This document shows, in pieces, positions 8,980-33,143 of a stretch of DNA of 64,000 bases; within the stretch, counting starts at the first letter, position 1; each line of letters opens with the position of its first letter. The notes under the pieces were generated by a model that was not told the origin of the DNA, searched no databases, and saw nothing but the letters and a program-made list of their open reading frames with translations. Source of the stretch: Capsulimonadaceae bacterium. GTDB taxonomy: Bacteria; Armatimonadota; Armatimonadia; Armatimonadales; Capsulimonadaceae. The position numbers and the translations under genes are program-made. The stretch spans positions 2,528,001-2,592,000 of the forward strand of contig OZ244065.1 in assembly GCA_965215505.1 (NCBI GenBank), read 5' to 3'.

Positions 8980-11109
8980 TTACTGGAAGGCCGCGCTGGC
9001 GAAGTCGAAGCGGACCTTTTTGGTCTTGGCAGAGTAGTATAAGGCGAAGTCACGCCCGAAGACCTTGCGGCTGACCGAGTACTCGAAGTCGCGGTAGCTG
9101 TCTATGACATACTCCTCGTAGGAGGAGACGATGCCGACGCCCCAGTTGTTGTTGATGCGGTAGTGGGCCGTGGCGAACAGGCTGCGGTCGCCGAGCGGCA
9201 GGCCGTAGCCACCGGAGAAGGCGACCGAGAGGCGCGGCAGCGGGTTGGTGAGGTAGGTGGCGGTGACGCGCTGCTGGGTACTGGACTTGAGCAGGGCCTC
9301 GAGCGGGTTGAGGCCGGACGAGGGCGTCCCGAGCTGCGAGAGCAGCGGGTCATAGCGATAGGTGTAGTTGAGCGAGAGCGAGTCCGACTTGCGGAAGGTG
9401 CGGGTGAGGCCGAGGCTGGCGCTGACGACGGGGGCCAGCTTGCTGTTCTGCGTACTCCAGACCTGGCCGACGGTGAGCGAGTCGGTGAGGTTGGTGCGCT
9501 TGTTGAGCTGTAAGGGCTGGGTGAAGAAGCGTATGTCTGCGGTGGTGTCGGAGACGGGGGTCGTGACCGTGCCGGTGTCCGGGGCGGTCTCGGTGACGGT
9601 GCCCCTCAGCAGCGAGAGGTCGGTTGAGTAATTGAAGATCGAGTGCCCCAATGTTTTGGGGTTGGTCTGGATGTAGGTGTTCAGGCTGTAGCTGCGGGCC
9701 GAGTAGCCGTCCGCGCCGGGGTCATTGCTGCCGGACGCGCTGGCGTTGACGGTGTAGCCGCTGAATTGGCGCGAGACGTTGGACGAGGCATACAGGCTGC
9801 GGTGGGCGGGATAGTCCACGAACATGTAGCCGGTCGTCACCGGGTCTATCTTCTGGGTGTGGTTCCACTGCGCGCCCCATTCGGAGCGGGTGATGCCGTT
9901 GACCAGGAACTGGCCCGTGCCGCCGCGCCCCGTCTGGTAGGTCTGTTCCAGGTCCAGGGCCAGGCCGTGGCGAACGCCCTGACTGCCGAAGAACGAGGCA
10001 CCCGTGGACAGGCTGTTGGCAATAGTCGCGCCGCTGACGGCGGCGTTCCGCAGGTAGACGGTGCCCTTGGAGTTGGGCGTCATGTTGTAGTAATACGGGA
10101 TGTTCAGGAACACGCCTTCCGACCCGAAGCCGAGGAGCTGCTGGCCGAAGATCTGGTCGGTGTTCATGGACATGACGTGGTAGGCCAGCGAGAGGAGCTT
10201 CTTGCCATCGCTGTAGATCGTCGCTCGCCGGAACTGAATCTGGTCGCCGGGGTCGGCGTTGATGCCGTGGGCGGACACGACGACGCGGCTGTCGGCGAGG
10301 TTCAGGAAGCGGTACGGGTTGGACACGAGCGGCAGGTCGGCGGGATCAACCGGCGCGGGCGCGGCCTCCAGGTCATTGCCGGTGACGGTGACGCTCTGGG
10401 CCTCACCGGCGAGGACGGCGGTCCCAGCCCAGTTCAGCAGGTCGTAGCGCAGCTCGGCGACGCGCAGGACGTGGCGGCCGCGCTGGAGCGTGGCGTGATG
10501 GGCGAGGACGAGCCGGGTCTGGAGGTCCACCTGGAGTGCGTCGGCCTTGATGTCCAGGCCCTTGTAGGAGAGGTGGGCGGAGCCGTTCTTGCCCTGCGCC
10601 TCGACGACGCGCGAGTCGGCGCTGTAGATGAGGTACTGGGGGCAGTCCAGGCGAATCCAGCGGGCGTCTTTGGAAAAAAGCGATTCCTTGTCTTCGGTGA
10701 ACTCGACCGTGGTGGTCCCCGCCGCCGACCCGGACGCCGCCGCGCCGAAAGACACGGCGGTGACGGTGGCGGTGCCCGACGAGGTGGCGCTGGTAAGCGA
10801 GATGCGAGCGACCCCCGACGTCGTCGAGGCGGTGTCCCCGGTGAGCGTGCCCAGCGTAGTCGTGAACCGGACCGGGGTATTGTTGGCGACGAGGCTGCCG
10901 CCCGCGTCCCGAACGGTGGCGGTGATGACCGTTGTACTCTTGCCGTCCGCGTAGATGATGTCCGGTGAGGCGGCGAGCGAGACGCTGGACAGGCCCGCCG
11001 CGCGCGCGGCGGTAGGCCGGAGCGCCGGAAGGAACGCCAGGACCACGAGGACGAACATCAAAAGGCGGGAGAGCGGGTCGGAGCAAGACCGAGCCGTACA
11101 AGGGCGCAT
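8980..11109 (-). CDS. Secreted protein: invasin/Big_1 Ig domain + OstA/LptD-like N-terminal region + predicted outer-membrane beta-barrel
   Basis: Signal peptide ending ARA; IYADGKSTTVITATVRDAGG (Big_1-like); IKADALQVDL and LNIPYYY (LptD-like); alternating aromatic beta-strands ending KVRFDFASAAFQ. Start ATG 11109 with AGGA SD. Confidence 0.65.
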   Translation of the reverse strand: MRPCTARSCSDPLSRLLMFVLVVLAFLPALRPTAARAAGLSSVSLAASPDIIYADGKSTTVITATVRDAGGSLVANNTPVRFTTTLGTLTGDTASTTSGVARISLTSATSSGTATVTAVSFGAAASGSAAGTTTVEFTEDKESLFSKDARWIRLDCPQYLIYSADSRVVEAQGKNGSAHLSYKGLDIKADALQVDLQTRLVLAHHATLQRGRHVLRVAELRYDLLNWAGTAVLAGEAQSVTVTGNDLEAAPAPVDPADLPLVSNPYRFLNLADSRVVVSAHGINADPGDQIQFRRATIYSDGKKLLSLAYHVMSMNTDQIFGQQLLGFGSEGVFLNIPYYYNMTPNSKGTVYLRNAAVSGATIANSLSTGASFFGSQGVRHGLALDLEQTYQTGRGGTGQFLVNGITRSEWGAQWNHTQKIDPVTTGYMFVDYPAHRSLYASSNVSRQFSGYTVNASASGSNDPGADGYSARSYSLNTYIQTNPKTLGHSIFNYSTDLSLLRGTVTETAPDTGTVTTPVSDTTADIRFFTQPLQLNKRTNLTDSLTVGQVWSTQNSKLAPVVSASLGLTRTFRKSDSLSLNYTYRYDPLLSQLGTPSSGLNPLEALLKSSTQQRVTATYLTNPLPRLSVAFSGGYGLPLGDRSLFATAHYRINNNWGVGIVSSYEEYVIDSYRDFEYSVSRKVFGRDFALYYSAKTKKVRFDFASAAFQ

Positions 11110-11215
11110 GGTGGTTTCCTGAAAGGGACTCGCCCCGGCGTTAGGGCCGAGGCGGGTGGTTAGGGCTGCATGGAGAGGGGGACGAACTCGGGTCCGCCCC
11201 CTTTGGAAGACCGCG

Positions 11216-12229
11216 TTAGATGACCGGTGCGGCGGGCGGCGCACTGCTGGTGCCGCCGGTGAGGCCAGGCGGGCTGGGGGGGCCGCTGCTGCCGGTCCCC
11301 GTCGTCGTGGTGCCGGTCGAGCTGTTGTTATTGTTGCTGCTGTGGTGCGAGGAGCCAATGGCGATGCCGACGGCGGCAGCCAGCAAGATGCCCAGCAGGA
11401 TGGAGCCGCCGTTACTGTGGTGGCCACGCGCGTAGTCCGTGGACACCACGCGCTGGGGGACGGTGCCGTTCAGGGCCGAGACGATCTGGCCGGCCACGTC
11501 GTTGATGGCGCTCTGGAGGAGGGCATCGGAGTCGTCTCCGGGATTATAGGAGACGCCCTTTCCGGTGAAGACCAGCACACGGGCGGCCGTCCCCGTCGCC
11601 GAGTTGTAGAGGTTCGCGCTGACGGTCAGGGAGACATTGCGGGTGGCAGTGTCCGCTTGCAGCGACTCGATCGTGCCGATCAAATAGCCGTCGGTTCCCA
11701 CCTGGGCGGCGATCTTCTGCGTCTTTTGCGGATCATTGTAGGGCGGCTCCAGGTCGTTCTCGCTCAAGCCTTCCACGCGCGCCTCCTGCAAGGCGCGCTG
11801 AATCTGGGGCAGGGAAGGCGCGAAGCTGTTGGCCTTGTAGCGCCCGATGACGTTCAGGCGCATCTTGATGGCGTCTTCGACGCGCGCCCCGACTTGATCC
11901 GCATTGAAGCTGCTCGCCCCCGCTGCGGGGATGTTGCTGGCGAACGGGAACAGCAGGATCGAGTGGATCGGACCGGCCGCGACCGGCGACATCGGGATGC
12001 GGATGGTACTGCCGGCAGGCGGCGCGGGCGCGGCGGGGGCGGGGGCCTCCGGTGCGACCGGCGCGACCTGCTGCGCCCGGGCGGCGACCAGGAGGCCGCC
12101 GGGCGGGCAGAGCATGGCGGCGGCCAGCGCGAGCGCGAGGGTGCGCTTCGCGAAGGTGCGGACGCCCTTGCTCTGGGTGAACGTCTTGCAGTCGGTGAAC
12201 ATGGATCTCTTCCTCTCGGTAACGCGCAT
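11216..12229 (-). CDS. Secreted TolB_N/CsgG-like alpha/beta protein with a hydrophobic helix and low-complexity tail
   Basis: Signal peptide; ILLFPF...KIAAQVGTDGYLIGTIE...VSLTVSANLYNSATG; then GSILLGILLAAAVGIAIG. Alternative start ATG 12202. Confidence 0.6.
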   Translation of the reverse strand: MRVTERKRSMFTDCKTFTQSKGVRTFAKRTLALALAAAMLCPPGGLLVAARAQQVAPVAPEAPAPAAPAPPAGSTIRIPMSPVAAGPIHSILLFPFASNIPAAGASSFNADQVGARVEDAIKMRLNVIGRYKANSFAPSLPQIQRALQEARVEGLSENDLEPPYNDPQKTQKIAAQVGTDGYLIGTIESLQADTATRNVSLTVSANLYNSATGTAARVLVFTGKGVSYNPGDDSDALLQSAINDVAGQIVSALNGTVPQRVVSTDYARGHHSNGGSILLGILLAAAVGIAIGSSHHSSNNNNSSTGTTTTGTGSSGPPSPPGLTGGTSSAPPAAPVI

Positions 12230-14562
12230 CAGTTCCGGGGCCGCCCGGCGAAGGTGCCCCGGCGCAGCGATGAAGCCCGGATCGCAGACCCCGTAGCACC
12301 CGTGATGTTCAGGGAGAGCGGGTCGCTGAAGACATACGGGTTGCTGAATCCCGCCTGGCCGTTGTCGGCGGAATTGCGCGCGCCGACCCGGTAGAAGAAG
12401 ACGGTCCCGCTGGGGAAGTCCGTCGTCAGGTTGATGTTGTTAAACACGACGGCCGTCCCGTTCGCGACGCTGATGCCGCCATTCTGGTTCGTCGGGAATT
12501 GCAGGGTCGCGGTGTAAGCTCCCGGCGCGGCCACATAGGTGTGGACGGTGGAGAAGCCGGGGTCGGTGCTGATTTGCAGGATGTAGTCGTTGGCACCGCG
12601 CGTTGCAGGCACAGTGACGTTGACGTTCGTGGCACCGGTCCCGGTGACCGCGTTGCCGAACGGGGCGACCGGCTCGATGTAGGTGACGTAGTTGGAGTTA
12701 CGCCGCCCGGTGAGCTGGAACGTCTCGCTGTGGCCCTGTGTGGTGGTAGTGCCCGTCGTGTTCTGGCCGGCCGTGTTCTGGCCGGTCGTGTTCTGGCCGC
12801 CGCCGCCCGTGGTGCCGCCGCCCGTAGTGCCCGTGCCGCCGCCCGTGGTGCCGTTGGTGTTGCCGGTGTTGTTCGTGTTCTGGCCGTTGTTGCCGGTCGT
12901 GCCGGGGTTGATCGTCCCCGTGTTGCCCGAGTTATAGGTGGAAGGCTGGATGTACAGCCCTTCAACCTGGTAGAAGACGCGCTGGCCGAATTGCAGTTCC
13001 GTGCCGGGGATCGGCGGCACGGTCGTGGTCGTCGTGGTCGTGGTCGTCGTGGTCGTCGTCGTGAAGACGAACCCGAAGCCTGCCCCGGTCAGCGTGACCA
13101 GAGTGCCGCTGTCAGAGGGGTCGGGCTTGGAGGCGGTCACGGACGCCTTCCCATTGAAGTCGTCGAAAACGAGCAGGTTGTTGTGGCCGGCCTGTGAGAG
13201 CAGGGGGATCTGGCCGAACCCGGACAGGCCCAGGATGCCTCCGGCGATGGTTGTCGTGTTGGTGCCCGTGTTGTTCGTGTTCGTGCCGTTGGTGTTGCTG
13301 TTGAAAATCGTGGTCGTCGTGGCCGAGTAGGCGGGCAGGCTGGCGAAGGAGGTCAGCGCGGCGGGCGCGTCACTCCGATAGACGTGGAACTCCAGGAAGT
13401 TGCTGTAGTCCACATTGCCCGTATCCGCCGTGATTCGGACAGCGACGGGGATGTAGCTGCTGTTCGGGAAGCCCACGGCGGGTACGCCGGTCAGGGAACC
13501 ACCGAGGTCCGACGACCTCCCGGAGACGGCGAGCACGCCTGAAACGCTCGCGCCGCCGAGCGAATGGGACCCACCGCCTGACTTGATGGCGCTCAGGAGC
13601 AGGCCGGCCGCGAGCAGAGCAACGAGGATGCCGCCGACGCCCTGGAAGGCGCTGTGGTGTACGGCAGTCGAGGGGGCGTCGGCGCCCACCTGCGCCGTGC
13701 TGGCGGTGACGAAACTGTGCGTCGCAGTGTCTATATGGTACTCAGGCAGTTGGTACAGGGCGGTCGCGCGGTCTTCGGGCTGAATGCCCTGGCCCTGATC
13801 CGTGATGACGGCCTCGGCGTCGTTGTTGGTGGCGCTGAAGATCCGGATACGCCCGGTGACGACGCCGTTACGGGACACCAGCATGTTCAGGCCGTTGTAC
13901 AGACCGTCCCGCGTGCCCTTGTTGAGCGTCACGGATTGGGTGTCGCGCCCAATCAGGACGGTCGCGACGGGGAGGCTGAATTTGCTGATCTGGCGGACGG
14001 CGTTGAAGGCGGCATTGCCGAACGCCTCGTTGACGAGCTGCTCCTCATCCGTGACGGGGATGGGGCGCTGGTTGGAATAGCCCTCGGCCAGCGCGCCGTT
14101 GAGCAGGAAGCCGGAGCGCGGGTCAAGGACACGAACGACCAGGCTGACTTTGGCCTGACGCCGGTCCCGCGAGAAGGAGACGGAGGCGATCTCCCCGGCG
14201 ACCATGCCCTGTACGCCCAGAGTCTGCCCCAGCCGCTCGATGCTGGTGAGGTTGAGGGGGGGAGTCAGATTGCTGTTCTGGATGCCGTTGAGCAGGTCCT
14301 GGCGGGGCAGGACGGCGTAGCGGTTGAGTTTCGCCAGTTCGACGACGAACGAGTCGGCGGCGAGCCGGCCGACATCGGTGCCGCCATACCCGGACGGGTT
14401 GGCGAAGTCCAGGACGGCCCAGGTGGGCTGGGGGGTGGCGAGTCCCTGTGCCCGCGCGGCGGGCGCGCGGAGCAGGAAGACGGCCAGAACGGGCAGTGCC
14501 ATCAGTACCGAGAGCAGTAGACTGAGGGGCCGCGCGCTCCAATGCTGTTTCAAATGTTTCAC
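12229..14562 (-). CDS. Secreted CsgG/FlgT-like protein with internal hydrophobic helix, Thr/Gly/Asn-rich linkers and FN3-like C-terminus
   Basis: WAVLDFAN...LGQTLGVQGMVAGEI...VRVLDPRSG (CsgG-like); VTLNKGTRDGLYNGLNMLVSRNG (FlgT C-terminal-like); YILQISTDPGF...FYRVGARN (FN3-like). GTG start with AGGAGG SD. Confidence 0.65.
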   Translation of the reverse strand: MKHLKQHWSARPLSLLLSVLMALPVLAVFLLRAPAARAQGLATPQPTWAVLDFANPSGYGGTDVGRLAADSFVVELAKLNRYAVLPRQDLLNGIQNSNLTPPLNLTSIERLGQTLGVQGMVAGEIASVSFSRDRRQAKVSLVVRVLDPRSGFLLNGALAEGYSNQRPIPVTDEEQLVNEAFGNAAFNAVRQISKFSLPVATVLIGRDTQSVTLNKGTRDGLYNGLNMLVSRNGVVTGRIRIFSATNNDAEAVITDQGQGIQPEDRATALYQLPEYHIDTATHSFVTASTAQVGADAPSTAVHHSAFQGVGGILVALLAAGLLLSAIKSGGGSHSLGGASVSGVLAVSGRSSDLGGSLTGVPAVGFPNSSYIPVAVRITADTGNVDYSNFLEFHVYRSDAPAALTSFASLPAYSATTTTIFNSNTNGTNTNNTGTNTTTIAGGILGLSGFGQIPLLSQAGHNNLLVFDDFNGKASVTASKPDPSDSGTLVTLTGAGFGFVFTTTTTTTTTTTTTTVPPIPGTELQFGQRVFYQVEGLYIQPSTYNSGNTGTINPGTTGNNGQNTNNTGNTNGTTGGGTGTTGGGTTGGGGQNTTGQNTAGQNTTGTTTTQGHSETFQLTGRRNSNYVTYIEPVAPFGNAVTGTGATNVNVTVPATRGANDYILQISTDPGFSTVHTYVAAPGAYTATLQFPTNQNGGISVANGTAVVFNNINLTTDFPSGTVFFYRVGARNSADNGQAGFSNPYVFSDPLSLNITGATGSAIRASSLRRGTFAGRPRN

Positions 14563-14600
14563 GAGATGGAGTTCCTCCTAGAAATCGTCCTAAACTTTCG

Positions 14601-14697
14601 CCGCCCGCCGGACCAAGAAAAAGATCGGCGCGGGCGGCTTCGATGTCCAATGATTGCCGGCCCTCCCCCGCCCTGGCACGCGCCGGGGCGGGGGAGA
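14601..14697. other. Two GC-rich stem-loops without a U-tract, between the giant gene and the CsgG-like gene
   Basis: CCGCCCGCCG...CGGCGCGGGCGG and CTCCCCCGCCCTGGC/GCCGGGGCGGGGGAG. Confidence 0.5.
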
Positions 14698-14731
14698 GTA
14701 ATGAGACCGTCGGAGCGGCTCTCGGTCCGCT

Positions 14732-17700
14732 TTACCTTCCGGTCGGGATCTGCACGGTCGTATCCACATACACCTTGATCCAGTACGCCTGGTAAGGCTG
14801 GAGCGAATCGGACTGTGAGACCGTCTGGTAGTTGACCCCGTCGTAGCGGTACAAAGTCGGCGAGACGATGTGGTTCGCGCTCCCGACCGCGTTCGCGAAG
14901 GAGAGGGTCGTCGTGCCCGTGACGAACGTGAGGTTCGCGACGGGGACCGGAGACGTGCTGGGCACGCCGATCTGGTTCCAGGACGGGTGCAGGGCGACGC
15001 TGATCGCCCCGCCGGTCGCGACGCCGGGCGTCGTCAGGTCCACCGCGTTCTTCAGGAAGACCCAGTAGCCCACGCCGAGCCGGAGGGCGTCGGCGGGCGC
15101 GGTCGGGTCCAGGGCGTACTGCCCGAGCAGCGGGTTCCAGACCGCGACGTGCGTCCGGTTGCCGTTTGGAGTGGTCCCGGTCGGGGCCGTGTTCAGCACG
15201 CCGAACAGGCTGTCGAAGGACGTGCCGCTATAATCGAACGGCGCGGACAGGAAGTTCAGGCCCGCCGCGAACGTGTGCAGCGGCGGCAGGCCGTTGATCC
15301 CGGTGAAGTCCAGCCGGGTGAACGTGCTGGCCGAGATCGTGACGGTCTGCGAACCCGCCGTGACGCCGTTCTTGGCGGCGGTGACGGTGTAGGTCCCCGC
15401 CCCCAACGTGACCGGCCCGTAGTTGATCTGGCCGCCGTCCGAGGCCGGCGTGGACGTGCCCGCCGTGACCGGGGCGGGCGTGATGGCCTGTCCGGTGCCC
15501 GTGTTGGTGATGGTCAGCGTGACACCGGCCAGCGGTGCCGAGGACCCGGTGCCGGTGACCAGGCCGCCCAGGGTGCCATTGGCGAGCGCCCCCAGCATGA
15601 TGTCCGGCACGGTCGTGGTCGTCGCGCCGACCACGACGACGGAGATCGGCGCGCTGCTGCCGAAGCCGGTCGCCGAGGCGGTCACGTTGTAGGTGCCTGC
15701 GGCCAGCGCGGCGATGTTATAGGTCCCGGTCGAGTCGGTGGTCGCCGTGGCGGCGACGACGGCGGGGGTGCCGCTGCTGAAGAAGACCGAGGCACCGGGG
15801 ATCGGGTTGCCCGAGGTGTCCACGACTCGGCCCGTCACCGCGCCCGGACCGGGCTGGAGCTTGAAGTTGACGACCAGGGCGGCGTTGCTGGCGACGACCA
15901 GGTTGGTCTGCGTCTGCGAGCCGAAGCCGGTCTTCGTGGCCGTGCCGCTGTAGGTGGACGGGGCCACCGAGGACAGCGTGTAGTTGCCGTTGGAGTCGGT
16001 CGTAGTCGAGTAGATCTGGCCATCGGTCGAGGTGAACGTGACGCTCGCACCCGAGACGATGTTGCCGCCCGTGTCGGTGACTTTGCCGGCGATGGAGCCG
16101 GGCGCGGCGGGAACCAGGGTCAGGCTGGCCTGCTGGACCGCATCCCCCTCGACGGTGAAGACGACGCCGGGGTTCGAGGTGGCCCGGATGAAGCCCGTCC
16201 GGTAGGCGGCGAGTGTGTAGTTGCCCGGCTCGATGCCGTCAATCCGGTAGTTACCCGCCGAGTCCGTGGTCGCGCTGAAGGTCCCGCGCCCCGGAATGGG
16301 ATTGCCGGACGCGGACACTAGATAGACGGTGACGCCCGACACACCCGATCCGACGACGCCGTTGCCGCTCGTGGAGCGGATGGTGCCGACGATGGAGCCG
16401 GTCCGCAGATAGTCCACGATGTTGTGGATGATGCTCTGCCGCTGGTTGCGCGGGTTGTAGATCACCGGGTTCGGCTTGAAGACGCTCGTAACCTTATAGA
16501 ACTCGGTGCCGAGTCCTTCCAGGCCGAAGGTGGCATAAACCACCTTGGAGCCGGTGCCGCCCGCCGCCGTGATCGGGTTCTCCGTGTAGATCAGGCCCAC
16601 GCCGCCCGGTGAGGAGGCCGCCGCGTCGTTGCCGTTGTCGAGCGGCGGAATCGGGTTGGTGAAGGGCGCGAGCGTGATGTCCGTGTGCGCGCCCTTGCCC
16701 GGCGTGATGGTGTCGATCGCGCCGACAACCGCGTTGGAGTTGAGCAGGGCGACCGGATAGGGCTGGATGTACGGCCCCAACTGGTCCAGCGAGCCGTCGG
16801 TGCGCCAGTTCCCCGCGAACGTGTTGAAGTTCGTGAAGACCAGGTCGGACGAGAAGATGTTCCCCGCAAAGTTGTTCGAGATGCGGAGGAGCCTCTGGCC
16901 GGGCGGCACAGTGGTCACCGTGATGCCCGGCTCAAGCTCCCGGTAGTTGCCGATCACGACGCCATCATAGCCCGGCGTGTTGGTGATGCGGTTGTCGGCA
17001 ATGGTCGGGGCGGCGACGACGGCCGGGATGTGCGTGCCGCCGTTGGGCGTCGCGAGTGTCGCGTTCAGCACGTCAAAGACGAACCCGCCTGCGGCATTGT
17101 TGACCTGACCGTTCTGCGTCAGGGTCGAGCCGACATCCTCGCCGGAGATGCACAGGCGACCGCCCGCCGCCACGAAGTTCCGCAGCGAGGTCTGCGTGGC
17201 CGTGTCGGCCAGCGTCCCGGACCCGGCAAGAACGTCGCCGGTGAACGGCGCGATCCAGACGATGCACCGGTTGGCGACGGCGACGCTCGCCGACGGGGCG
17301 GTGAACTTGGTCGTGCCGCTCGTGTCGGCGACGGCCGGCTGCGTCTGCCGCGTCGGAGTGTAAGCAGCGTACACCGAGTTCGGAACCGGGCCGCGCGCCA
17401 GGGTGCGCCAGATGCTGTACTGCTGTGAACGGACTGCGGGGACGTTGTCAATACGCCCGCCATCGTCAATGAACCGGTCATAGTAGGAGCCAACGCCCAG
17501 GCCGTTGAAGACGGGGTTCATCAGCAGCTGCTGCTCCGGGGAACCGGGGCCACCCTCCGTGTCGAGGTCCCGCCCGGTGGGCGAGTAGGAGCTGCCCAGG
17601 AAGTTGACTTCCACGTTCGGGTCGTTGGCATTCGCGCCGGTGATGACCGTGTTCCGGTAGATGGCGTTCGGCAGCAGATTTACGTCAATGTCGGTGACGT

Positions 17701-22618: not shown

Positions 22619-22650
22619 GTAAAGACTGGGTGTAAAGACTGAGTAAAGAG
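22619..22650. repeat. Short direct repeats in the long leader of giant gene A
   Basis: GTAAAGACTG twice plus GTAAAGAG, with looser copies at ~22671 and ~22682. Confidence 0.55.
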
Positions 22651-22928: not shown

Positions 22929-22993
22929 GCGGTTTTTTCGCGATTCCGTCAGCGGGACTTTCTTTTCGTATTTATTTCATCGGAGGGCGGCGG

Positions 22994-23031
22994 AAGAGAA
23001 GCGGCGGAGACGAATGACTCGCCCCCGCCGC
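22994..23031 (-). terminator. Probable terminator of giant gene B
   Basis: GCGGCGG...CCGCCGC stem followed by TTCTCTT on the minus strand. Confidence 0.55.
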
Positions 23032-23054
23032 CTAGTTCCGGCCCCCGACCAAGC

Positions 23055-26000: not shown

Positions 26001-29000
26001 CGTCCCGGTTGACGACGTGACGCGGCCCGAGACCGTCGCCAGAATCGGCGTCAGCGTGAAGTTGACCGGCTGCGTCGTGGCGTTGGACAGGACGGAGACG
26101 CCCGCATTGAAGGGCGCGTCCGGGGCCGCCGCCGTCGTGTACTCAAAGGTCCCTTGGTCGTTGGTCGGGCCATTGGCGACCGAGGTGTAGGTCGCCACCG
26201 GGACGCTGTCCACGAAGTAGGAGCCGGCGGGCTGGCCCGCCTGGAGCCCGGTGCGCGTCGTGGTCGTCTCGGTCGTCGTCTTGTCGGTCGAGGTGAAGGT
26301 GACGCTGGCCCCGATGAGGCCGTTGCCGGCCGTGTCCTTGACGGTGCCGGCGATGCTGCCGGGGTTAAGGGCCGTGATCGTCAGTGTGCCGTTGTTGCGG
26401 ACGACGCCGCCTTCCAGCGTGAACGCCGTACCGTTGTTGCCGATCGTCCTCTGGAAGCCCGACTTGTAGGCGACCAGCGTGTAAGTGCCCGGCTCGATGC
26501 CGTCAATGGTGAACCGCCCGTCGCCGCCCGTGCTGGCGCTGAAGGCCGCCCGAGTGGGGGGTGCGCCGCCGGTGGGGCGGAGGTAGACGGTGACGCCCGC
26601 CACGGGAGTACCCGCCGCCACGCCCGGTCCGGCCGTCTGGGTGATGATGCCCGTGACGCTCGCGGTCCGCAGGTAGCAGATGATGTTGTGCAGGATCGCC
26701 TGGCGCGGATCGCGCGGGATGACCGGCGGCGGGACGCGCGGCGGGTCCGGCGGGATCGGCGCGACAGAGGCGTAATAGTCGCTGCTCAGGGACTCGATGC
26801 CGAAGGCGGCATAGACGGTCCGGCTGCCGGTGCCGCTGTTTGGCGTCCCCGTTTGCGTGATATTCTGGAACGGATCGTCATGGAAGACCATGGCGACCGG
26901 GCCGCCCGCGCCGTAAGTGGCGGCGACAGTCGCGCCATTGGTGGGCGCAATGGTGTCTATCCGGCCCTGGATGCTGGCACCGGTCGCCAGGGTGAGGGCG
27001 GGGATCTGGTCCAGCGCGGCGTCATTACGGTCAACATTCCCCAGGATCAGGTTGTCCTGATAAGGAAGATTTTGCAGGTTGACGATGAAGAAGCCAGTCG
27101 TGAAGTTCCCAATCACGGTCAGGTAGCGGCCAGCGCTCGTGTTGTCGTAGAACGGGCTTCCGGTGATCCGGTTGGCCGTGGCAGCCAGTGTGGTGCTGCC
27201 GCCGCCCGGCGTCACCTCTTTAGCGCTCAGGACGTCCGGCAGGAAGCCGCCGGCCGTATTGCCCGAGGTGCCGTTGATCGTCAGCGTCGCGCCGACGTCT
27301 TGCCCGGTCATGAACAGGCGTCCGCCACCAGGATGGGCGGCCGTACCGTCGCCGAGGACGAAGTTGCGGAGGACGGTCTGCGTGCTGGGCCGTGCCACGC
27401 TGCCATTCTGGGCAGGCGTGCCGGGGTCGTTCAGCGAGCCGGGGTCGGTCAGCAGGTCCCCAGTGTAGGGTGAGAGCCAGATGACACACCGGGGGGCGTT
27501 CAGGATGGTCGCGGCCGGGATGTTCGCGAAGGCGGGATCAACGGGGTCGTTGATGGCCGGCTGTGTCTCCCTCAGGGGCAGGTAGCTGGCGAGGACCGCG
27601 TCCGTAACGGGACCGCGCGCCAGGGTACGCCAGATGGTGTACCGCTGCGTGGGCAGGTCGGGTGCCCCGTCGCGGCGCTCGCCGTCGTCAATGATGGTGT
27701 CATAGTAGGACCCGACGCCAAGCCCATTCTGCGTGGTGATCGTCGTGCCGAAGAAGGTGCCGAACGAAGTCCAGTTGAACAGCGTCGGATCGTAGAGGAA
27801 CGGCTGGACGAGCGTCGGCGAGGGCGGGTTGACGGTCCCGACAGCAAGACCCGCGTAGTTGACGTCAGCCAGAGTGCTGATGTCCACGTCGGTCAGGTAG
27901 GACTCGGCACCAAACAACTTGGGCACAAGGTTCAGGTTGGAGTCGCGCCCGGCGAAGGTCGTGGCGGCGAACTTCTGCCCCAGGGCATAGTCGCTCACGA
28001 CCAGGATGCTGTTAGCGCTGCTGAGGTTCTGGACAGTGCTGAAGCCGCCGGTGTTGTCGTAGATGCGCCAGTTGACCTGCTTGCCGACATAGTTGGACGT
28101 GCCAACGGGGATGTTCGGGAAGACGGCCTGGTCATACGCGACGACGTCCAGGAAGAAGTCGCTGGCCGAGGCCGGCGTGGTCCAGGTGACGGTGTAAAGC
28201 ACGCCGCCCCGGTTGTCCTGGACGGGAGACGGCACCATCTGGAGCCACTCAGCCGGAGCAGTCCCGTTCTGGGCGATGGGCCGCACCTTGTTGACGCCGC
28301 TGAAGGCGGCCTGATCGTCCACGCCAGCCAGCCAGAACGGGTTCCGGAAGTCGGCGGGCGATACGTCGCCGATGCCCGAGTTCGGGTTCCCGCTGGTAAG
28401 GAACTGCGGGTTGACGAGCTGGCACTCGTACTCCGGCCCGCGCGGGATGAACAGGGCGGGGTCTCCGCCGGTCTCGCCGCCCGGATTGATGCCGCCGCCG
28501 GCCTTACCGACGAAGATGTAGGTGTCGTCCGGGTTGTTGGCGTCCGGGAACGTCCACTGGCCGCCGTGTGCGCCGCGCGGGAAGACGTCGCGCCCCACAA
28601 TCGAGGGTAGCTGGGTTATGCCCCCAAAGGGAGGGTACTGATACTTATTGTTCGTGATGATCCCGTTGGGCGGCCCTTCGTAGCCAAGGAAGCCGAGGCC
28701 GAGAGACGAGTTCGCCGTCCCGCTGTCCGTGTCGTTGCTGGTGAAGCGGTTAGGCTGGTTGTTGTACTGGCTGTCCTTAGAGAAGACCTTATGCTCCAGG
28801 TTCTGCGAGTCCTGATACTTGGAGTTCGGGTTCTTGATCTGGAGGAAGACCTGCGAGCGGCTCGGGAGGGTGGTCCCGCCGACGTTCACGGTGCTGGTCG
28901 GCCCGTTGTTGAGGGGCGCGCGCGGGGTACCGTCCGAATTGGTACCGTTGTCAATGCCGGCCTCGCGGTCGGACAGGCGGACCGTGAAGGTGACCTTCTG

Positions 29001-32000
29001 GCCCGGAGCGATGCCCACCTTCTCCGACACGCCGCTGATGGGGGTTGCGCTGTTGCCGGCCTGAACGTGGATGATCTCGTTCGGGTTGTAGCGTAGCAGC
29101 GTCGGCGGGTCCAGGTTCAGCACCTGGGACTCGAAGATGCCGGTGTAGCCCAGGACGCCGAACCGGGGGGTGGGGCCGACGACGCTGTAGGTGGGCTGAC
29201 TTGTGCTTGATGTGTTGACTACGCCGCCCGGTGCGACGGAGATGGCCGTCTCGCTGGGGAAGGAGCTAGACGGGTCGTTATAGGTGACGGTGCGGCTGTT
29301 CGTCACGGCCCCCGTCGCGAAGTTGAAGCCGCCGCCCTGGTAGGTGATGCTGAAGATGGACAGGCCGGGTGACCAGGCTGGGTACACGTCGTCGAACGTG
29401 TTGCCGGTCTGCGCGCCCTCCTGCTGCCCGCCGGTCCCGTTGGAGCCTGCGGTGGTCTCGCCGCTGTTGTCATCCGTATTCAGCCTGACGACGGCGTTGG
29501 CCGCGCTCGCCCCGGTTGGCGTGTCGCCTTCGGGAACGATCTGCTCCTGGAAGTTCGCGGTGACGAAGTAGAAGTATTCGTTGCCGATCGTGGCCTGCGT
29601 GTCCACGAGCGTCAGGAGGCCGCCATTGTTGGTCGGGACCTGGTTCAGCAGGTAGGCGAAGGCACCTTCCTGGCCCGCGCCGGTGCCGGGCGAGTTCAAC
29701 TGCGTCGGTGAGCCGGCACTGCGGAAGACGCTGAAGCTGGTCGGCGTGCCGAGGCTGCCACCCACGCCGCCGGGCGTGTTGAAGGTCAGCGTGACGGAGC
29801 CGAAGCCGGGGCCGCTGCCGCCGTTGAAGTCGCCGATCGCCAGCAGGTTCTGCGGGGCCGAGGGGTCGGTGGCGGTCGTAAGGTTCCCGAAGCCGCTGCT
29901 CGCCGTCCGGGTCCCGTTGACGTTCGCTCCGGCGAGGACCTCGATGCCCTGGATGATCGGGACACCTTTAGCGACGGGGACGGAGTTCGTGAAGTTCAGG
30001 GTGATGTTGTTCGCCAGGTCGGTGTTGCCGAAGTTGTCCCTGAAGGTCCTCGCAGGAACGGTCACGTTGAAGGTCTGGACCACGGCGGCGTTCGGCTGGC
30101 CGCCGTTCGCGCGGACCAGGACCTGGTTCAGGTTTGTGACCGAGCCGTTTATGATGCTAGGCGTCGCCTGGACCGTCGTGTACCCAGGCAGGCTGAAGGT
30201 CACGGTGTACTGAGTCCCAGGCGTCACGGCACCGGGAAGGTTGACGCTGAAGTTAGGCTGCCCGTTCGCGGTGTTGACGATGGCCCGGTAGCCCGCCCCC
30301 ACGATGGTGATGGTCACCCCGGTCAGCGGCTGGCCCGAGGCCATGTCCGTGGCGTTGCCGCTCAGGGTGCCGACCGTGTTGCCGCCGGCGAGGGCGAAGT
30401 TCGTCGTGGTCGGCGTGTTGGCGGTGAAAGTGGCGGTCTGGGTCTGCGTGGCGAGGCCCGTGGCCGTTGCGGGGTTCGCGGTGATGTTAAAGGTGCCATT
30501 CGGGACCGGGAAGTTGTAGTTCCCGTTCGCGTCCGTCGTCCCCGATGCGATGAGGGCCGTGGTGACGGGGTCGGTGACCCGGATCGGGACATTGGGCGCG
30601 GGTGCCGTCGTGACCGCGTTGGTCACGTTGCCGACGGCCGTTGCGGTCGTCCCCGACACCACATTGAAGTTCGCCCGCGTGAAGCCGGCGCTGTTGACGA
30701 CGATCGTCTGGCTCTGCGCCGTGAAGCCGGCCCCGGAGGCCGTCACGGTGTAGGTGCCGGAGGGCAGGTTGGAGAAGTAGTTCGTCGGAGCACCGTCGCC
30801 GTTCGGCGGGGCGAAGGTCTGCGGCACGCCCGTGGTCAGGGTGCGGAGGACGTTGCCCGCCGCATTCGTGACGGTGACGGTGACGCCCGGCTGCGCGTTG
30901 CCGCCGGACGTGACGAGGCCGCCGAAGTTGCCGGGGCCGCCCAGGGCGTTCGCCACGATATCGAAGTTGGTCAGGATCTGCTGGCCGTTGGCGACCACGT
31001 TGAACTGGCGCTGGCCTGCGGCGGTGTTGGTCGGGTCGGAGAAGTGCAGCCGCAGCGTGTAGGTGGCACCCGCCGTCAGGTTGGGCAGGGCGTAGTTCAT
31101 CGGGCCGTTCCGGTCGGTCAGGAAGATGCCCACGGGCGTCCCCGGATCGCCGGCCGTGCTTGGGACGTTGGGCGGGTTGACCGTTTCCGTCACGCCAGGA
31201 AGGAAGGGACTGAAAAAGCCCTGGCCGTTGTTGAAAAGGTTGTTGTTGTCGGCCAGATAGCCACCGACCCCGCCGCCGGACAGGTCCCCAGCGTTGATCT
31301 GGTAGACGGGGAAGTTGAACGTCCGGGGCGTGGTCCCGGCCTCGATGGACCGCTGGCTGCCGCCGCCCGCGTTGAGGAAGCGCACCGCCTGGATGTAGAC
31401 AATGTCGTGCGTCGCGGTCTGGCTGGCCCCACGCGCGAAGGCGAGGTACTCGAAGCCGGGCGACGGATTGGTGAACTGGTTCGGGTTGTTGAAGCTCCAG
31501 GCCGGCCCGAAGTTATCCGTGCCGACCGCCGTGATTGCGCCGACCCGGCCGCCCTGCGTCTGGAACGAGGCGGGCACGACGCCCAGGCCGTTGCCCGACG
31601 TGCCGCCGCCGCCGACCAGGAAGATGGTGCGGTTGCCGCCGGTCGTGCCGCCGGAAGTCAGGGTCGGGACGCCCCCACCTGCCCCGTTCGGGGTGAGCGA
31701 GGTGGCCGTGGAGGCGAACGCGACGAACTGGCCGTCCTTCGAGCTGGCCGGGTCCGTGTCGTCAGCCGGGCCGTCGGTGAGCTGGCCGGGGAAGGAGATG
31801 TTGTTCGCGTCGGAGCCGCCCGAGCTGGTGAACAGGAAGTACAGGTGGTTATGGAAGGCATTCGGCCCGGTGACGCTGCGGGCGGAGAAGACAAGCTCGC
31901 CCGCGTTGGTGCCCAGGAAGGTGGGCCGCTGCACCGCGTCGAAGCCGGTCAGGGCGGCGCTCTGCGCCTCGGTCGGGAAGGTGGTCTGACCGGCGGGCGC

Positions 32001-32888
32001 GCGCAGGGTGACGGACAGGATGCCGCCGTTGGCGGTGTCGATGTTGGAGACGTTCTGGAACGCCTGGCTGTTGTTCAGGGTCAGCAGGGCGCTGAAGGAG
32101 AAAGAGCTGAGGACGAACAGGTTCTGCGTCCCGCTCGACTGGGCATCCGAGGTGAAGGCCAGGCTGCCGTCGGTGGGGGTGAGTGTCGGGAAGAACTCGC
32201 CGTGCGGAACGGCAGTGTTCTCGCCCATCGTGGCCTGGCTTGTGGTAATCTGGAAGGCCTCGCCGCCGTTCACCGAGATGGCCCAGAGGTGGAACCGCGA
32301 CGTGATGCCGTCAATACCCTCATGGTTCACGTCGCCGTTCAAAGAGCGGTTAGAGGAGAAGATCAGGAACTTCTCGTCCGCCGACCAGATCGGCGTCAGG
32401 TTGGTCGGGATCAGCGCGTTCAGCGGCTGGAAGATGGGGGCGTTAGCCGGGTTGTTGCCCAGGCTGCCGTCCGCGTTCTGGAAGCCGATCAGCGGCTGGA
32501 AGGCCGGGGCCGGGTTGTTGACGTCGAAGGTCTGCTCCGCGCCGGGGATGGGGACGGTGTTGCTGCTGGTGGCGTGCGCGCGGAGCGCGCCGGGCCGCAT
32601 CATGTCCCGCCCGAGCAGTACCCGCCCGTTCGGCGTCCGTTCGGCCCCGCTGAAGTCCCCGGAGGGCGCGGCGGCGCGGACCTGGGAGGCGTGCATGGAC
32701 GCCATCAGGGAGAGCGCCTGCCCCAAGCCGCCCTGCCCCGCCGCCGGGGCCGCCTGGACGCCGGGGGGCATCAGGCCGGCCAGCAGGGCCAGCAGGCATA
32801 GGAAGGAAGAGAAGCGGAGAGCGCGCGGAGTTTTGGCCGAAGCGTTGCGTTTGGACGAAGCGTTGAAAAGGGTGCGTAAAGCGTTCAA
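23055..32888 (-). CDS. Giant secreted multidomain protein B (~3277 aa), paralog of protein A with a longer TTR-repeat stalk
   Basis: TTG start at 32888 after GGAGG; signal peptide ending VQA; same domain order and shared motifs (QVFLQIKNPNSKYQDSQ.LEHKVF, LNLVPKLFGAESY, LRLGVGYWVFLKNAV). Confidence 0.85.
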   Translation of the reverse strand: MNALRTLFNASSKRNASAKTPRALRFSSFLCLLALLAGLMPPGVQAAPAAGQGGLGQALSLMASMHASQVRAAAPSGDFSGAERTPNGRVLLGRDMMRPGALRAHATSSNTVPIPGAEQTFDVNNPAPAFQPLIGFQNADGSLGNNPANAPIFQPLNALIPTNLTPIWSADEKFLIFSSNRSLNGDVNHEGIDGITSRFHLWAISVNGGEAFQITTSQATMGENTAVPHGEFFPTLTPTDGSLAFTSDAQSSGTQNLFVLSSFSFSALLTLNNSQAFQNVSNIDTANGGILSVTLRAPAGQTTFPTEAQSAALTGFDAVQRPTFLGTNAGELVFSARSVTGPNAFHNHLYFLFTSSGGSDANNISFPGQLTDGPADDTDPASSKDGQFVAFASTATSLTPNGAGGGVPTLTSGGTTGGNRTIFLVGGGGTSGNGLGVVPASFQTQGGRVGAITAVGTDNFGPAWSFNNPNQFTNPSPGFEYLAFARGASQTATHDIVYIQAVRFLNAGGGSQRSIEAGTTPRTFNFPVYQINAGDLSGGGVGGYLADNNNLFNNGQGFFSPFLPGVTETVNPPNVPSTAGDPGTPVGIFLTDRNGPMNYALPNLTAGATYTLRLHFSDPTNTAAGQRQFNVVANGQQILTNFDIVANALGGPGNFGGLVTSGGNAQPGVTVTVTNAAGNVLRTLTTGVPQTFAPPNGDGAPTNYFSNLPSGTYTVTASGAGFTAQSQTIVVNSAGFTRANFNVVSGTTATAVGNVTNAVTTAPAPNVPIRVTDPVTTALIASGTTDANGNYNFPVPNGTFNITANPATATGLATQTQTATFTANTPTTTNFALAGGNTVGTLSGNATDMASGQPLTGVTITIVGAGYRAIVNTANGQPNFSVNLPGAVTPGTQYTVTFSLPGYTTVQATPSIINGSVTNLNQVLVRANGGQPNAAVVQTFNVTVPARTFRDNFGNTDLANNITLNFTNSVPVAKGVPIIQGIEVLAGANVNGTRTASSGFGNLTTATDPSAPQNLLAIGDFNGGSGPGFGSVTLTFNTPGGVGGSLGTPTSFSVFRSAGSPTQLNSPGTGAGQEGAFAYLLNQVPTNNGGLLTLVDTQATIGNEYFYFVTANFQEQIVPEGDTPTGASAANAVVRLNTDDNSGETTAGSNGTGGQQEGAQTGNTFDDVYPAWSPGLSIFSITYQGGGFNFATGAVTNSRTVTYNDPSSSFPSETAISVAPGGVVNTSSTSQPTYSVVGPTPRFGVLGYTGIFESQVLNLDPPTLLRYNPNEIIHVQAGNSATPISGVSEKVGIAPGQKVTFTVRLSDREAGIDNGTNSDGTPRAPLNNGPTSTVNVGGTTLPSRSQVFLQIKNPNSKYQDSQNLEHKVFSKDSQYNNQPNRFTSNDTDSGTANSSLGLGFLGYEGPPNGIITNNKYQYPPFGGITQLPSIVGRDVFPRGAHGGQWTFPDANNPDDTYIFVGKAGGGINPGGETGGDPALFIPRGPEYECQLVNPQFLTSGNPNSGIGDVSPADFRNPFWLAGVDDQAAFSGVNKVRPIAQNGTAPAEWLQMVPSPVQDNRGGVLYTVTWTTPASASDFFLDVVAYDQAVFPNIPVGTSNYVGKQVNWRIYDNTGGFSTVQNLSSANSILVVSDYALGQKFAATTFAGRDSNLNLVPKLFGAESYLTDVDISTLADVNYAGLAVGTVNPPSPTLVQPFLYDPTLFNWTSFGTFFGTTITTQNGLGVGSYYDTIIDDGERRDGAPDLPTQRYTIWRTLARGPVTDAVLASYLPLRETQPAINDPVDPAFANIPAATILNAPRCVIWLSPYTGDLLTDPGSLNDPGTPAQNGSVARPSTQTVLRNFVLGDGTAAHPGGGRLFMTGQDVGATLTINGTSGNTAGGFLPDVLSAKEVTPGGGSTTLAATANRITGSPFYDNTSAGRYLTVIGNFTTGFFIVNLQNLPYQDNLILGNVDRNDAALDQIPALTLATGASIQGRIDTIAPTNGATVAATYGAGGPVAMVFHDDPFQNITQTGTPNSGTGSRTVYAAFGIESLSSDYYASVAPIPPDPPRVPPPVIPRDPRQAILHNIICYLRTASVTGIITQTAGPGVAAGTPVAGVTVYLRPTGGAPPTRAAFSASTGGDGRFTIDGIEPGTYTLVAYKSGFQRTIGNNGTAFTLEGGVVRNNGTLTITALNPGSIAGTVKDTAGNGLIGASVTFTSTDKTTTETTTTRTGLQAGQPAGSYFVDSVPVATYTSVANGPTNDQGTFEYTTAAAPDAPFNAGVSVLSNATTQPVNFTLTPILATVSGRVTSSTGTALAGATVTLTGPTVGATAPTVLTTTTAADGTYTFTNVPAASTALSATPVTGIPYTITATASGFGAGAAPGPVTLELGDVVTDTTAPAHRTDVVLTALASISGRIFDNTVGDTNAGGANVAGATVTLTNAAGTVVATTSASATGTYTFTNVPSTTTPTTYTVTATRVGFTTNSSAPFTVVLGSVITAKDIGLTPIAPGSITGRVTDTANGGAGVGGALVTFVSADGTTTLHATADGSGNYSLPTVFPGTYNGTATGPLNPNGRPTTTQGTATAVVASAPAVATANFSVATIPPSLAGTVTDSATPTHNPLKNALVTITDTASGTVIQTLHTDANGKYSTGPLPASGKPLSQYTVTITASLVGFATQSLPSQSIYNGDALTDTIASEAPLLDIALVAAGAGSVSGQVTDVSTGAGVSGAVVSFLSTDGTTTLPSATTDANGNYSIPTTGKTDPSGNYIGSVTPPNNANGRPEFTTPPTQNITIPAGGTQTVNFTLTEILAALSGTVLDNQTGTPISGATVTLTDATGKAIGTPQTTGATGTFSFAAIPAGQAPAAFALSATVPGGYFPGAKTVTLSLGDLLTGQNIGLDEKGTITGLVTDGSTGQPLPNVSLTVTDTTTKATPTNLTPSPLVTTPGTAIGPDGKTSNYTATFTLTPGHSYTVSASKPNYNPTAPVAVTPSPLTASQAGRADLQLTSGIGTLGGLVSDATTNAAIGGATVTVASVSATGASTVVATFTTNSSVSPAPDGKTQGINYSGQVAQGTYTVTLAFGSRTPVVQKVTVVGGQFNRLDFTGANGAPPVYVFPAGLNFLSTPYDYSSLSFDTLFGILNTAPTGTTPNGNRTHVAVWDPTVSQYAVDPNAPADSLRLGVGYWVFLKNAVPLTVQGATPSAAFVPVALHPSWNQIGVPNIKGVPVSSLMFDNGAGGMISFATAASSQYHVVAPTLYSFDGSGYQPVTQSSVLQPWKAYWIQVYSGATLEIPTK

Positions 32889-33114
32889 AGGGTACAACCT
32901 CCCTGGTTGTGCGCGGGGCCGGGCGCGGCGTCCCCCTTGGGGGGTTACCTGGGGCCGGGGCTTTATCAAACGACAGGTGTCATCGAATCGTTAATTAGTT
33001 CGTGAAGCGCGCCGCCGAGGCAGTGCGGATGGGCATGGTGGGGAGGGAACGGCTGCGGGTCGTGTCGCCCGTCGCTCGGGTGTGATCAGCCCCGGAATTC
33101 TCCCAGGGCAATTG

Positions 33115-33143
33115 ATTATAACACACCGCCCGGTTTTTGGCAA
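33115..33143 (-). promoter_or_regulatory. Sigma70 promoter of giant gene B
   Basis: TTGCCA-N17-TATAAT with extended -10 TG; AT-rich tract upstream (33150-33200). Confidence 0.75.

Follow-up and report, generated by a model that had tools for sequence, protein, structure and literature searches.

How bacteria with two membranes outside the Proteobacteria display and hold very large coat proteins is the question raised by a locus of a Capsulimonadaceae bacterium (phylum Armatimonadota), from a little-known group of soil bacteria, for which the operon described here gives a concrete hypothesis. The locus lies in a stretch of 64,000 nucleotides (nt; assembly GCA_965215505.1, contig OZ244065.1, positions 2,528,001 to 2,592,000 of the forward strand), called the window hereafter, with a G+C content of about 67%. 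It comprises two genes for giant proteins, gA and gB, and three for smaller ones, g777, g337 and g709 (the trio). The reading proposed here, tentatively, is that of a conserved Capsulimonadaceae envelope operon in which an expanded LptD-type translocon would be tied to a coat of giant proteins.

Gene set, conservation and transcription

The five open reading frames (ORFs) are carried by the minus strand, where an earlier note, made from the sequence alone, had placed them:

8980-11109, minus strand: g709, ATG start, 709 amino acids (aa)
11216-12229, minus strand: g337, 337 aa
12229-14562, minus strand: g777, GTG start, 777 aa
14732-22456, minus strand: gB, TTG start 10 nt after GGAGG, 2574 aa; the longest ORF reaches 22606
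23055-32888, minus strand: gA, TTG start 10 nt after GGAGG, 3277 aa; the longest ORF reaches 32969

Co-orientation and Sec-type signals had been claimed in the same note and both were borne out. All five proteins present a basic n-region, a hydrophobic core and an AxA-type site, as judged by eye from sequences and alignments, and the orthologues keep these signals. The start leader is nearly identical in gA and gB (caacca[g/a]ggaggttgtaccc). The TGATG announced between g777 and g337 is present, the stop of the former overlapping the start of the latter in a different frame. The window contains 27 other likely genes, 24 with Pfam families and 3 without, and parts of a type I secretion system (T1SS; ABC/MFP), an autotransporter, TpsB/POTRA or a type IX secretion system (T9SS) are not recognisable among them, as the earlier note had stated. 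Genes like csgA, csgB, csgE or csgF were not found in the window either.

Relatives of the locus were sought by a profile scan of genomes with a g777 alignment (A2, the window and 22 of the 73 g777 hits), which gave 150 pattern-matching stretches and, from these, 25 confirmed relatives (loci L001 to L025); synteny was read from tblastn of the window proteins against the 25 loci. The records of 24 of them are titled Armatimonadota, Armatimonadetes, Armatimonadales, Capsulimonadaceae or Capsulimonas. A giant of the gB type, g777, g337 and g709 follow each other on one strand in 23 loci, the other two (L001 and L002) being cut by a contig end before g709, and the linkage between small genes and giant on which the earlier note had relied is confirmed to that extent. 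Best-segment identity to the window is 40-85% for g709, 43-84% for g777, 32-77% for g337 and 37-81% for gB, the giant that always adjoins g777. In 17 of the 25 loci another giant, its C-terminus of the gA type, is encoded upstream. A single, shorter giant is present in L021, and before it stand the MFS and GFO/IDH genes found beside gA in the window; in L006 a giant was not seen within 2 kb upstream, and six loci end too early to judge. Homologues were gathered in 87 clusters for g709 and 73 for g777, among the latter CCAX7_003630 of the cultured relative Capsulimonas corticalis, an organism in which the hypothesis is testable because of this gene. A third homologue search, with profile A5 (see below), gave no further taxa.

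The FeoB, Uma2, BlaR1 and 145-aa ORF flanks of the window have no counterpart in any of the 25 loci, and the genes 3' of g709 vary from locus to locus: RecQ in 15 loci, at variable distance and strand, and also GNAT, AhpC-like and pilin-like genes. Because the flanking genes differ, the conserved unit is formed by the giant or giants and the trio, and ends at g709. A conserved sixth gene downstream was considered and rejected, only RecQ, GNAT and AhpC-like genes of variable place and strand being found.

Some loci show peculiarities of their own. L008 (JBPBQB010000285.1) comes from a record titled as a metagenome-assembled genome (MAG) of Janthinobacterium lividum, but holds the complete module, 54-64% identical to the window, like the Armatimonadota records, and is probably a mis-binned contig. 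In L006, from a long-read MAG, the gB and g709 homologues (2106-9905 and 13301-15401) are each broken into several frames, for which assembly frameshifts are more likely than real pseudogenes. The g337 frame opens right after the g777 stop, in the same frame, in L006, L007, L010, L013 and L016, compared with the out-of-frame overlap of the window. L009 has an extra gene (13625-14257) for a secreted protein of 210 aa, in a 1.1-kb insert between the g337 and g709 homologues that other loci lack. Finally, a tetratricopeptide-repeat (TPR) protein of about 300 aa is encoded directly 3' of the g709 homologue, on the same strand, only in the three most divergent loci, a clade whose machine may include it as one more component:

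L021, 15257-16180: TPR gene
L024, 7274-8132: TPR gene
L025, 7985-8950: TPR gene

The transcription layout of the window comprises the following elements:

33115-33143, minus strand: promoter-like site of gA, TTGCCA, 17 nt, TATAAT, with TGT just before; 33143 is the end of the stretch marked in the earlier note
22993-23032, minus strand: terminator-like hairpin and T-run, 3' of the gA stop
22900-22928, minus strand: promoter-like site of gB, TTGCGT, 17 nt, TATAAT, with TGT before
14563-14731, minus strand: gB-g777 spacer, G+C-rich hairpins without a clear T-run, then AGGAGG and the GTG start
11110-11215, minus strand: g337-g709 spacer, G+C-rich hairpin; similar hairpins are found here in most loci
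8860-8927: two 25-nt arms, 96% complementary and each itself palindromic, right after the g709 stop

The gA site is similar in form to that of gB, whose promoter block (GCTTGCGTAAA ... TGTTATAATC) does not vary among the 10 aligned loci, save one base in L001. From a reading of the alignment, a hairpin and T-rich tract after the gA-type stop are visible in most of the 10 loci. The gB-g777 spacer measures about 55-85 nt in 7 of 13 aligned loci, where it holds a small G+C-rich hairpin, and therefore a promoter does not fit there. The GAGG core of the ribosome-binding site and the GTG start of g777 are invariant in the 13 loci, with AGGAGG in most. A scan of positions 8300-15000 found no promoter. 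By these sequence features gA and gB seem to have a conserved strong promoter each, with the trio co-transcribed behind gB, and the gB-g777 spacer is probably an attenuator within one transcript. Strongly expressed giants would then be followed on the same transcript by the trio, at a lower level, past the attenuating hairpins. The transcription unit likely ends at the arms at 8860-8927, which overlap the start of the 145-aa ORF (8435-8872; without family or counterpart in the loci) and whose motif is not repeated elsewhere in the window beyond chance.

The LptD-type protein and its putative partners

By sequence profiles g709 is a divergent LptD homologue, a member of the LptD superfamily, and its C-terminal part is most likely an outer-membrane barrel with a BAM-type C-terminal signal. 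Its parts are:

aa 43-138, nt 10696-10983, minus strand: immunoglobulin-like (Ig) domain, Invasin_D3 4.1e-11 and Big_1 1.9e-08 (Pfam)
aa ~159-466, nt 9712-10635, minus strand: beta-taco and first barrel strands, LptD profile matches
nt 8983-9711, minus strand: beta-rich C-terminal part

The earlier note had described a Big_1 domain joined to an LptD-like part. The Ig domain is found in Pfam, and the LptD-like part holds at the level of profiles, although for the single protein it is not visible in Pfam or NCBIfam.

Alignment A4 was made from the last 570 residues of g709 in the window and 17 of the 22 usable locus copies. Searched against 1.84 billion representatives (50% identity), it matched 396 at E<=1e-3, 298 at E<=1e-10 and 163 at E<=1e-30, mostly proteins of 640-710 aa with an N-terminal extension of 125-150 aa. 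The Ig domain was identified in 30 of 30 distant members scanned, one of them with a sub-threshold LptD_N match (E 0.0018) right after it; relatives that seemed to lack the domain turned out to be N-terminally cut fragments. Against PDB sequences the top match of A4 was LptD (7omm_A, E 0.025). Alignment A5, comprising the window and 95 of the 150 listed representatives (96 sequences), matched the same chain at E 1.8e-10 (43.4 bits), with profile positions 128-416 on LptD residues 86-380, an alignment that takes in the taco, the first strands of the barrel and, with them, the Pro-Tyr-Tyr motif; a second LptD, 8h1r_A, gave E 0.68 only. With hhalign, A5 matched P0314 (1139 aa, LptD_N and LptD_2) at 96.6%, E 5.9e-10, over 279 columns (g709 aa 159-466). 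The N-terminal jellyroll or taco of LptD is in this way recognised at profile level, single sequences matching weakly; homology to the barrel reaches its first strands only, and a lateral gate is putative. The sole invariant column among the 96 sequences of A5 is P338 of the Pro-Tyr-Tyr motif. In LptD generally, conserved prolines where the barrel begins loosen the seam of the gate.

Other features of the predicted barrel are an aromatic end of the outer-membrane-protein type (last residue F, Y or W in 70 of 96 members, an aromatic within the last three in 80) and about 20 amphipathic strand-like segments at aa 330-709. A coupling analysis (191 sequences, Neff 136) was too noisy for single contacts. 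Antiparallel ladders at separations of 8-40 gave 0.37% of cells over the threshold, compared with 0.02-0.04% at long range and 0.17% in the parallel control, a weak signal of about 8-15 times the long-range background and about twice the control; the ladders chain along aa ~339-616 and again at 677-690. Only about 370 residues follow the start of the barrel, which suggests fewer strands than in canonical LptD, where about 550 residues follow it and the strands are 26. Two relationships considered for g709 were rejected, a copying of its Ig domain from the giants (best E 0.02) and a homology with g337 (hhalign 0.3%). An LptD-superfamily protein is present phylum-wide in Armatimonadota; for Terrabacterial diderms, surveys had, in the text accessible, reported no recognisable LptD or LptE (PMC5007114, PMC8871954).

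The two middle proteins carry a predicted domain of the CsgG/LptE/LpoB type followed by a hydrophobic helix, and by sequence they are non-lipoproteins, g777 having no cysteine and the signal cysteine of g337 not being conserved, so that neither has a lipobox. They are organised as follows:

g777: signal peptide, then a domain of the CsgG/LpoB/TolB_N type at aa ~42-200, a small beta domain at ~200-290, the hydrophobic helix and the C-terminal half
g777 helix: aa 304-331, nt 13570-13653, minus strand, Kyte-Doolittle mean up to 2.37
g337: signal peptide, then a Pro/Ala linker, an alpha/beta domain that is the paralogue of the g777 N-domain, the helix and the tail
g337 helix: aa 272-296, nt 11342-11416, minus strand, conserved

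The g337 family was aligned from the window and 19 of the 24 locus copies (A3); L002 was omitted because of the contig end, L011, L012 and L020 for their uncertain start codon and L016 for its closeness to L014. The g337 and g777 families match with hhalign at 97.8% (E 1.2e-12, 181 columns), by which the two are paralogous in the N-terminal domain. Among relatives of g777, at E<=1, CsgG was matched by 22 of 23 (best 1.5e-07), LptE by 5, FlgT_M by 2, and LpoB, DUF3280 and MreC by one each; among those of g337, LptE by 3 of 20 and LpoB by one. The Atlas model of the Capsulimonas g777 homologue (aa 45-266) resembles CsgG/LpoB/TolB_N/FlgT_C clusters (TM by row 0.43-0.52), CsgG/HfaB-family clusters among them, and its nearest Atlas clusters (58, 254 and 58 members) are commonest in Armatimonadota. 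The CsgG/TolB_N-like domains that the earlier note had assigned to both proteins are upheld by these family-level matches and the Atlas structure.

The g777 helix is kept in every full-length row of A2 and is followed by 445 residues in which Thr/Asn/Gly runs alternate with conserved beta-rich islands. The tail of g337 is made of His, Ser, Thr and Gly and ends in a near-invariant PPxPP (1 of 20 rows deviates); the basic residues precede the helix rather than follow it.

The giants and the proposed coat

The giants had been described as paralogues sharing a C-terminal domain. The common domain is present, and the paralogy is not confined to it but runs the whole length: gA and gB are 38.7% identical over 2684 columns and 41.4% over 561 more, gA being longer by about 700 residues of Ig-like repeats. 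Conservation between both is highest in the last ~150 residues (100 of 148 identical). The mature proteins measure 333 kDa (gA) and 263 kDa (gB), with a pI of 4.78; they are rich in Thr, Gly and Ala, poor in Cys, Met and Lys, and have 4 and 3 cysteines. Their domains are:

gA: signal peptide; PD40 repeats, ~aa 190-430 (long ORF); malectin, ~615-675
gA, continued: CarboxypepD_reg/Ig-like, ~690-960 and ~2100-3080; about 1100 aa without family; C-terminal domain
23058-23627, minus strand: C-terminal domain of gA, ~190 aa, motifs GxGYWV and WNQIGVP, common to gB and all orthologues
14735-15304, minus strand: C-terminal domain of gB, the same as that of gA

A PDB match was not found for gA aa 1000-2100. 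The C-terminal domain, with a mean identity of 60% in alignment A6 (20 of 38 available copies), had no match in Pfam, PDB or NCBIfam, and within the window occurs only at the ends of gA and gB. NCBIfam NF052345 (the Kustd1514 S-layer glycoprotein) gave 62.2 and 21.2 bits against a cut-off of 1400, partial matches over the Ig-like repeats, and the giants are not members. The gB orthologues of L008, L010, L015, L018, L021 and L022 lack about 600 aa that match gB aa ~500-1130; the giants therefore vary by large domain blocks. As predicted from sequence, these features fit an S-layer-like or adhesin-like coat at the surface.

In the mechanism proposed, the giants, each with a beta-propeller, malectin and many Ig-like domains, would be the structural products, and the trio a lower-abundance machine, an expanded LptD-type translocon. 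g709 would contribute a periplasmic Ig domain, the beta-taco and the outer-membrane barrel; g337, and perhaps g777, would play an LptE-like partner role, the hydrophobic helix replacing the lipid anchor of the Proteobacteria partners. Amphipathic cargo would move along the taco groove and out by the lateral gate, be it lipopolysaccharide (LPS), helix-anchored subunits or both. The Thr/Asn/Gly-rich C-terminal half of g777 would lie at the surface, and the giants would dock there by their common C-terminal domain. The apparatus would thus insert and anchor the coat and would not be a channel threading 300-kDa proteins; an inserter or anchor is more likely than a pore for proteins of that size. 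We infer in this scheme that a complex is formed, that the helix is in the outer membrane and that the giants are contacted, as well as the g777 topology and the cargo. A more specific form is unlikely. In it g709 would be a second, specialised LptD paralogue exporting helix-anchored proteins in place of lipid-anchored ones; the helices of g777 and g337 would travel along the taco groove to the lateral gate, the CsgG-type domain would remain periplasmic, the Thr-rich C-terminal half of g777 would be exposed, and this tether would hold the giants by their C-terminal domain. If true, it would mean Terrabacterial surface display without lipoproteins.

Several known systems are comparable. As in LptD-LptE of Neisseria (7omm), a taco is followed by a predicted barrel starting with Pro-Tyr-Tyr, the C-terminal signal is aromatic, and the gene of a small putative alpha/beta partner, with weak LptE likeness, adjoins. 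In contrast, g709 adds an N-terminal Ig domain and reaches no curated model, the partners are two, with helix and tails instead of the lipid anchor of LptE, and the unit seems co-transcribed with giant coat genes. Diderm Terrabacteria are not known to have outer-membrane lipoproteins. Such lipoproteins, LptE among them, are presented in the accessible text of a review as a later and less widely produced addition to the envelope (PMC11784454).

According to the accessible text of bioRxiv 10.64898/2026.10.03.756453, the LPS translocon of Bacteroidota exports surface lipoproteins, and its extra subunits include LptP, periplasmic and with five Ig domains, and LptT, an alpha-helical outer-membrane protein at the lateral gate. 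As far as the architecture is given in that text, both systems have an LptD core with lineage-specific parts and a link to surface protein display. The periplasmic Ig part is a separate protein there (LptP) and is fused to g709 here, and the alpha-helical part beside the barrel, LptT in Bacteroidota, would perhaps be formed here by the helices of g337 and g777. On the same source, the Bacteroidota LptADE core is highly canonical, its genes are unlinked except lptQ-lptR, and the cargo are lipoproteins, whereas no lipobox is present here. The operon bears on the claim, made in that preprint's accessible text, that LPS translocons have a second role in protein display.

Diverged LptD homologues have been described elsewhere. 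That of Borrelia burgdorferi (surface lipoprotein flipping, disputed) is a diverged barrel maybe for protein display, in place of LPS or besides it, by the accessible parts of PMC11784454 and bioRxiv 10.64898/2026.10.03.756453. Acetonema longum, as described in the accessible text of PMC13018214, has a working LptD of 480 aa with a 16-strand barrel (F7NLY8) and a second, distant homologue (F7NII2) suggested for another function. Terrabacterial LptD proteins are small, and in this and in the diverged second homologue there is a likeness to g709. By these descriptions, an Ig domain, CsgG/LptE-like helix partners or giant neighbours are not reported for the Borrelia and Acetonema homologues.

The N-domain of g777 matches CsgG (the curli channel) by sequence in 22 of 23 relatives, and by Atlas structure clusters of CsgG and its kin (HfaB, LpoB, TolB_N, FlgT); unlike CsgG, it matches only half of the profile and has no lipoprotein signal, and a helix and a long C-terminal half are added. 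The giants resemble S-layer proteins and giant adhesins, such as Kustd1514 of anammox bacteria, in being very large, acidic, Thr-rich and Cys-poor, with an own strong promoter and a long leader; RsaA of Caulobacter is another S-layer protein for comparison. They differ from S-layer systems in that the window has no T1SS genes and the C-terminal domain is family-less. Inverse autotransporters (intimin and invasin) have the Big_1/Invasin_D3 Ig domain in common with g709, but a 12-strand barrel first and then Big_1 was not found in g709, where the order is reversed (Ig before barrel), the barrel is LptD-like and LysM is lacking.

No account of the gene set was found in the literature that could be searched, with journals under subscription, supplements at bioRxiv and the description of the taxon Capsulimonas outside its coverage. 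Known already are LptD, its family of folds and protein display linked to LptD; the combination of an Ig-LptD fusion, two helix-bearing partners of CsgG/LptE fold and giant coat genes, apparently on the same transcript, had no counterpart there.

A number of observations weigh against the proposed operon-encoded translocon. The main argument is topological: for so hydrophobic a helix after a Sec signal the default is an inner-membrane stop-transfer, with the C-terminal half in the cytoplasm, and the outer-membrane placement would be an assumption drawn from composition and one precedent. For the window g709 no LptD or OstA model was matched in Pfam or NCBIfam even at E 10, and NCBIfam on 70 members (A9) gave LptC in 3, LptA in 3 and LptD models in none. 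The LptD alignment ends at about aa 466, the last ~240 residues match nothing, and the closure of the barrel between first and last strand gave no covariation signal in the 191 sequences. Pfam scores of the partners are below their cut-offs, g777 matching CsgG at E 0.003 (17.4 bits against 20.8, profile positions 6-100 of 210) and g337 only LptE at E 0.033 (15.3 bits against 23), and PDB sequence searches with both found no CsgG, LptE or LpoB structure, the matches being none or spurious. Accordingly, neither the full CsgG domain above cut-off nor a lipoprotein signal is found in g777, and g337 neither reaches the curated LptE model nor conserves a lipoprotein signal. A homology between the C-terminal domain of the giants and g777 was rejected (hhalign 0.1%), the g777 of L021 has its own TTGCAC-17-TATAAT site in the spacer, and synteny covers one family-level clade only, Capsulimonadaceae.

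Other explanations have to be set beside it. A rather unlikely one is that g709 is the housekeeping LptD of the phylum, with g337 (and g777) as LptE-type partner and LPS insertion as the sole job; the giants would share its regulation, coat and outer leaflet being made together or the coat binding LPS. The LptD homology of g709 and the weak LptE likeness of the adjoining gene agree with this, and so does a family that is wide (396 representatives at E<=1e-3, 163 at E<=1e-30, with the Ig and LptD-like build in 30 of 30 scanned), has Atlas clusters of the g709 homologue (50, 111 and 289 members) commonest in Armatimonadota, and occurs once per chromosome-sized contig among the matches listed. 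g709 is also the best-kept gene of the module in most loci (in L021, 53% against 44, 38 and 44%). By the accessible texts, Armatimonadota have two membranes and LPS genes (PMC11535203, PMC5007114, PMC5629042, PMC4072686), with a 55-nm periplasm in cryo-EM of Fervidibacter (PMC11535203), and a true but divergent LptD is to be expected, surveys having missed LptD and LptE among the diderms of Terrabacteria (PMC5007114, PMC8871954). Against a housekeeping role, none of lptA, lptB, lptC, lptF or lptG lies in the 64-kb window, and lpt genes are likewise missing from the 25 loci; the block seems co-transcribed with a giant coat gene, and the long surface-like C-terminal parts of the partners are unlike LptE. 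The precedent of Acetonema longum, in the part accessible (PMC13018214), indicates that g709 may be a second, specialised copy. There is also an Atlas lead only (0.88), a cluster of 516 aa, mostly Armatimonadota, with LptD_N in 24% of 462 members and resembling Bacillota clusters of 460-509 aa; if this second LptD_N family is real, g709 would therefore be a paralogue.

The earlier note had proposed that a CsgG-like ring and a barrel pore secrete both giants across the outer membrane. The conserved linkage with the giants, CsgG in 22 of 23 g777 relatives with the CsgG/HfaB-family clusters in Atlas structure, the lack of other secretion systems in the window and a common C-terminal domain that could be a secretion signal speak for this model. 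However, the features of a CsgG-type channel in the outer membrane were not found: the match is limited to profile positions 6-100 of 210, the membrane hairpins of CsgG lie in the unmatched part, and g777 and g337 lack a lipobox. LptD-type barrels are known to insert amphipathic molecules sideways and not to thread soluble proteins of 300 kDa, and the giants have no hydrophobic or lipid anchor for the taco groove. Such a barrel has a lumen of about 25 A that opens sideways, and folded domains would not fit even through the larger form of Bacteroidota, according to the accessible text of bioRxiv 10.64898/2026.10.03.756453; type II secretion genes of the phylum would be another route, by that of PMC4072686. 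This model is quite improbable. The interpretation of the earlier note is supported in part, in the linkage, the LptD likeness and the CsgG-type domains, and not in a passage of the giants through the apparatus or a binding to it. The least probable explanation makes g777 and g337 type I proteins of the inner membrane, the domain lying in the periplasm and the tail in the cytoplasm; like LpoB or TolB_N they would act on the assembly of cell wall or envelope, and g709 would be functionally unrelated. A signal peptide and then one strongly hydrophobic helix are the standard stop-transfer signature, and LpoB and TolB_N are among the weak matches; however, the 445 residues behind the g777 helix have, in their Thr/Asn/Gly runs and beta-rich islands, the composition usual in extracytoplasmic linkers and not in cytoplasmic domains, the basic residues of g337 are before and not after the helix, and an unvarying order and close spacing with g709 across 23 loci argue for a joint function.

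Neighbouring genes of the window

The rest of the window contains genes of several other functions. A pilin-like protein with an N-terminal methylation motif and DUF1559 is encoded at 333-1169, and a similar pilin-like gene lies 3' of the g709 homologue in L013, L014 and L016; the DUF1559 pilin-like family is typical of Planctomycetota and Armatimonadota-like genomes. Two fasciclin-domain proteins (1277-7649) flank a tRNA-Arg (GCG) at 2782-2855, and FTR1-like and FeoA/FeoB iron-uptake genes follow. The single Rfam match of the window is a tRNA.

A fusion of 1057 aa, joining an amino-acid permease with HAMP, PAS and histidine-kinase domains, is found at 46785-52320, with a SpoIIE-type phosphatase and an HD-domain response regulator on its flanks. 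Finally, a polysaccharide cluster is located on the minus strand at 52653-62879 and comprises glycosyltransferases, a hexapeptide transferase, a Wzy_C protein, a GH44 enzyme and a 986-aa fusion of acyltransferase_3 with a Wzx-type flippase. This cluster might be a source of glycan for LPS, for a capsule or for Thr-rich proteins.

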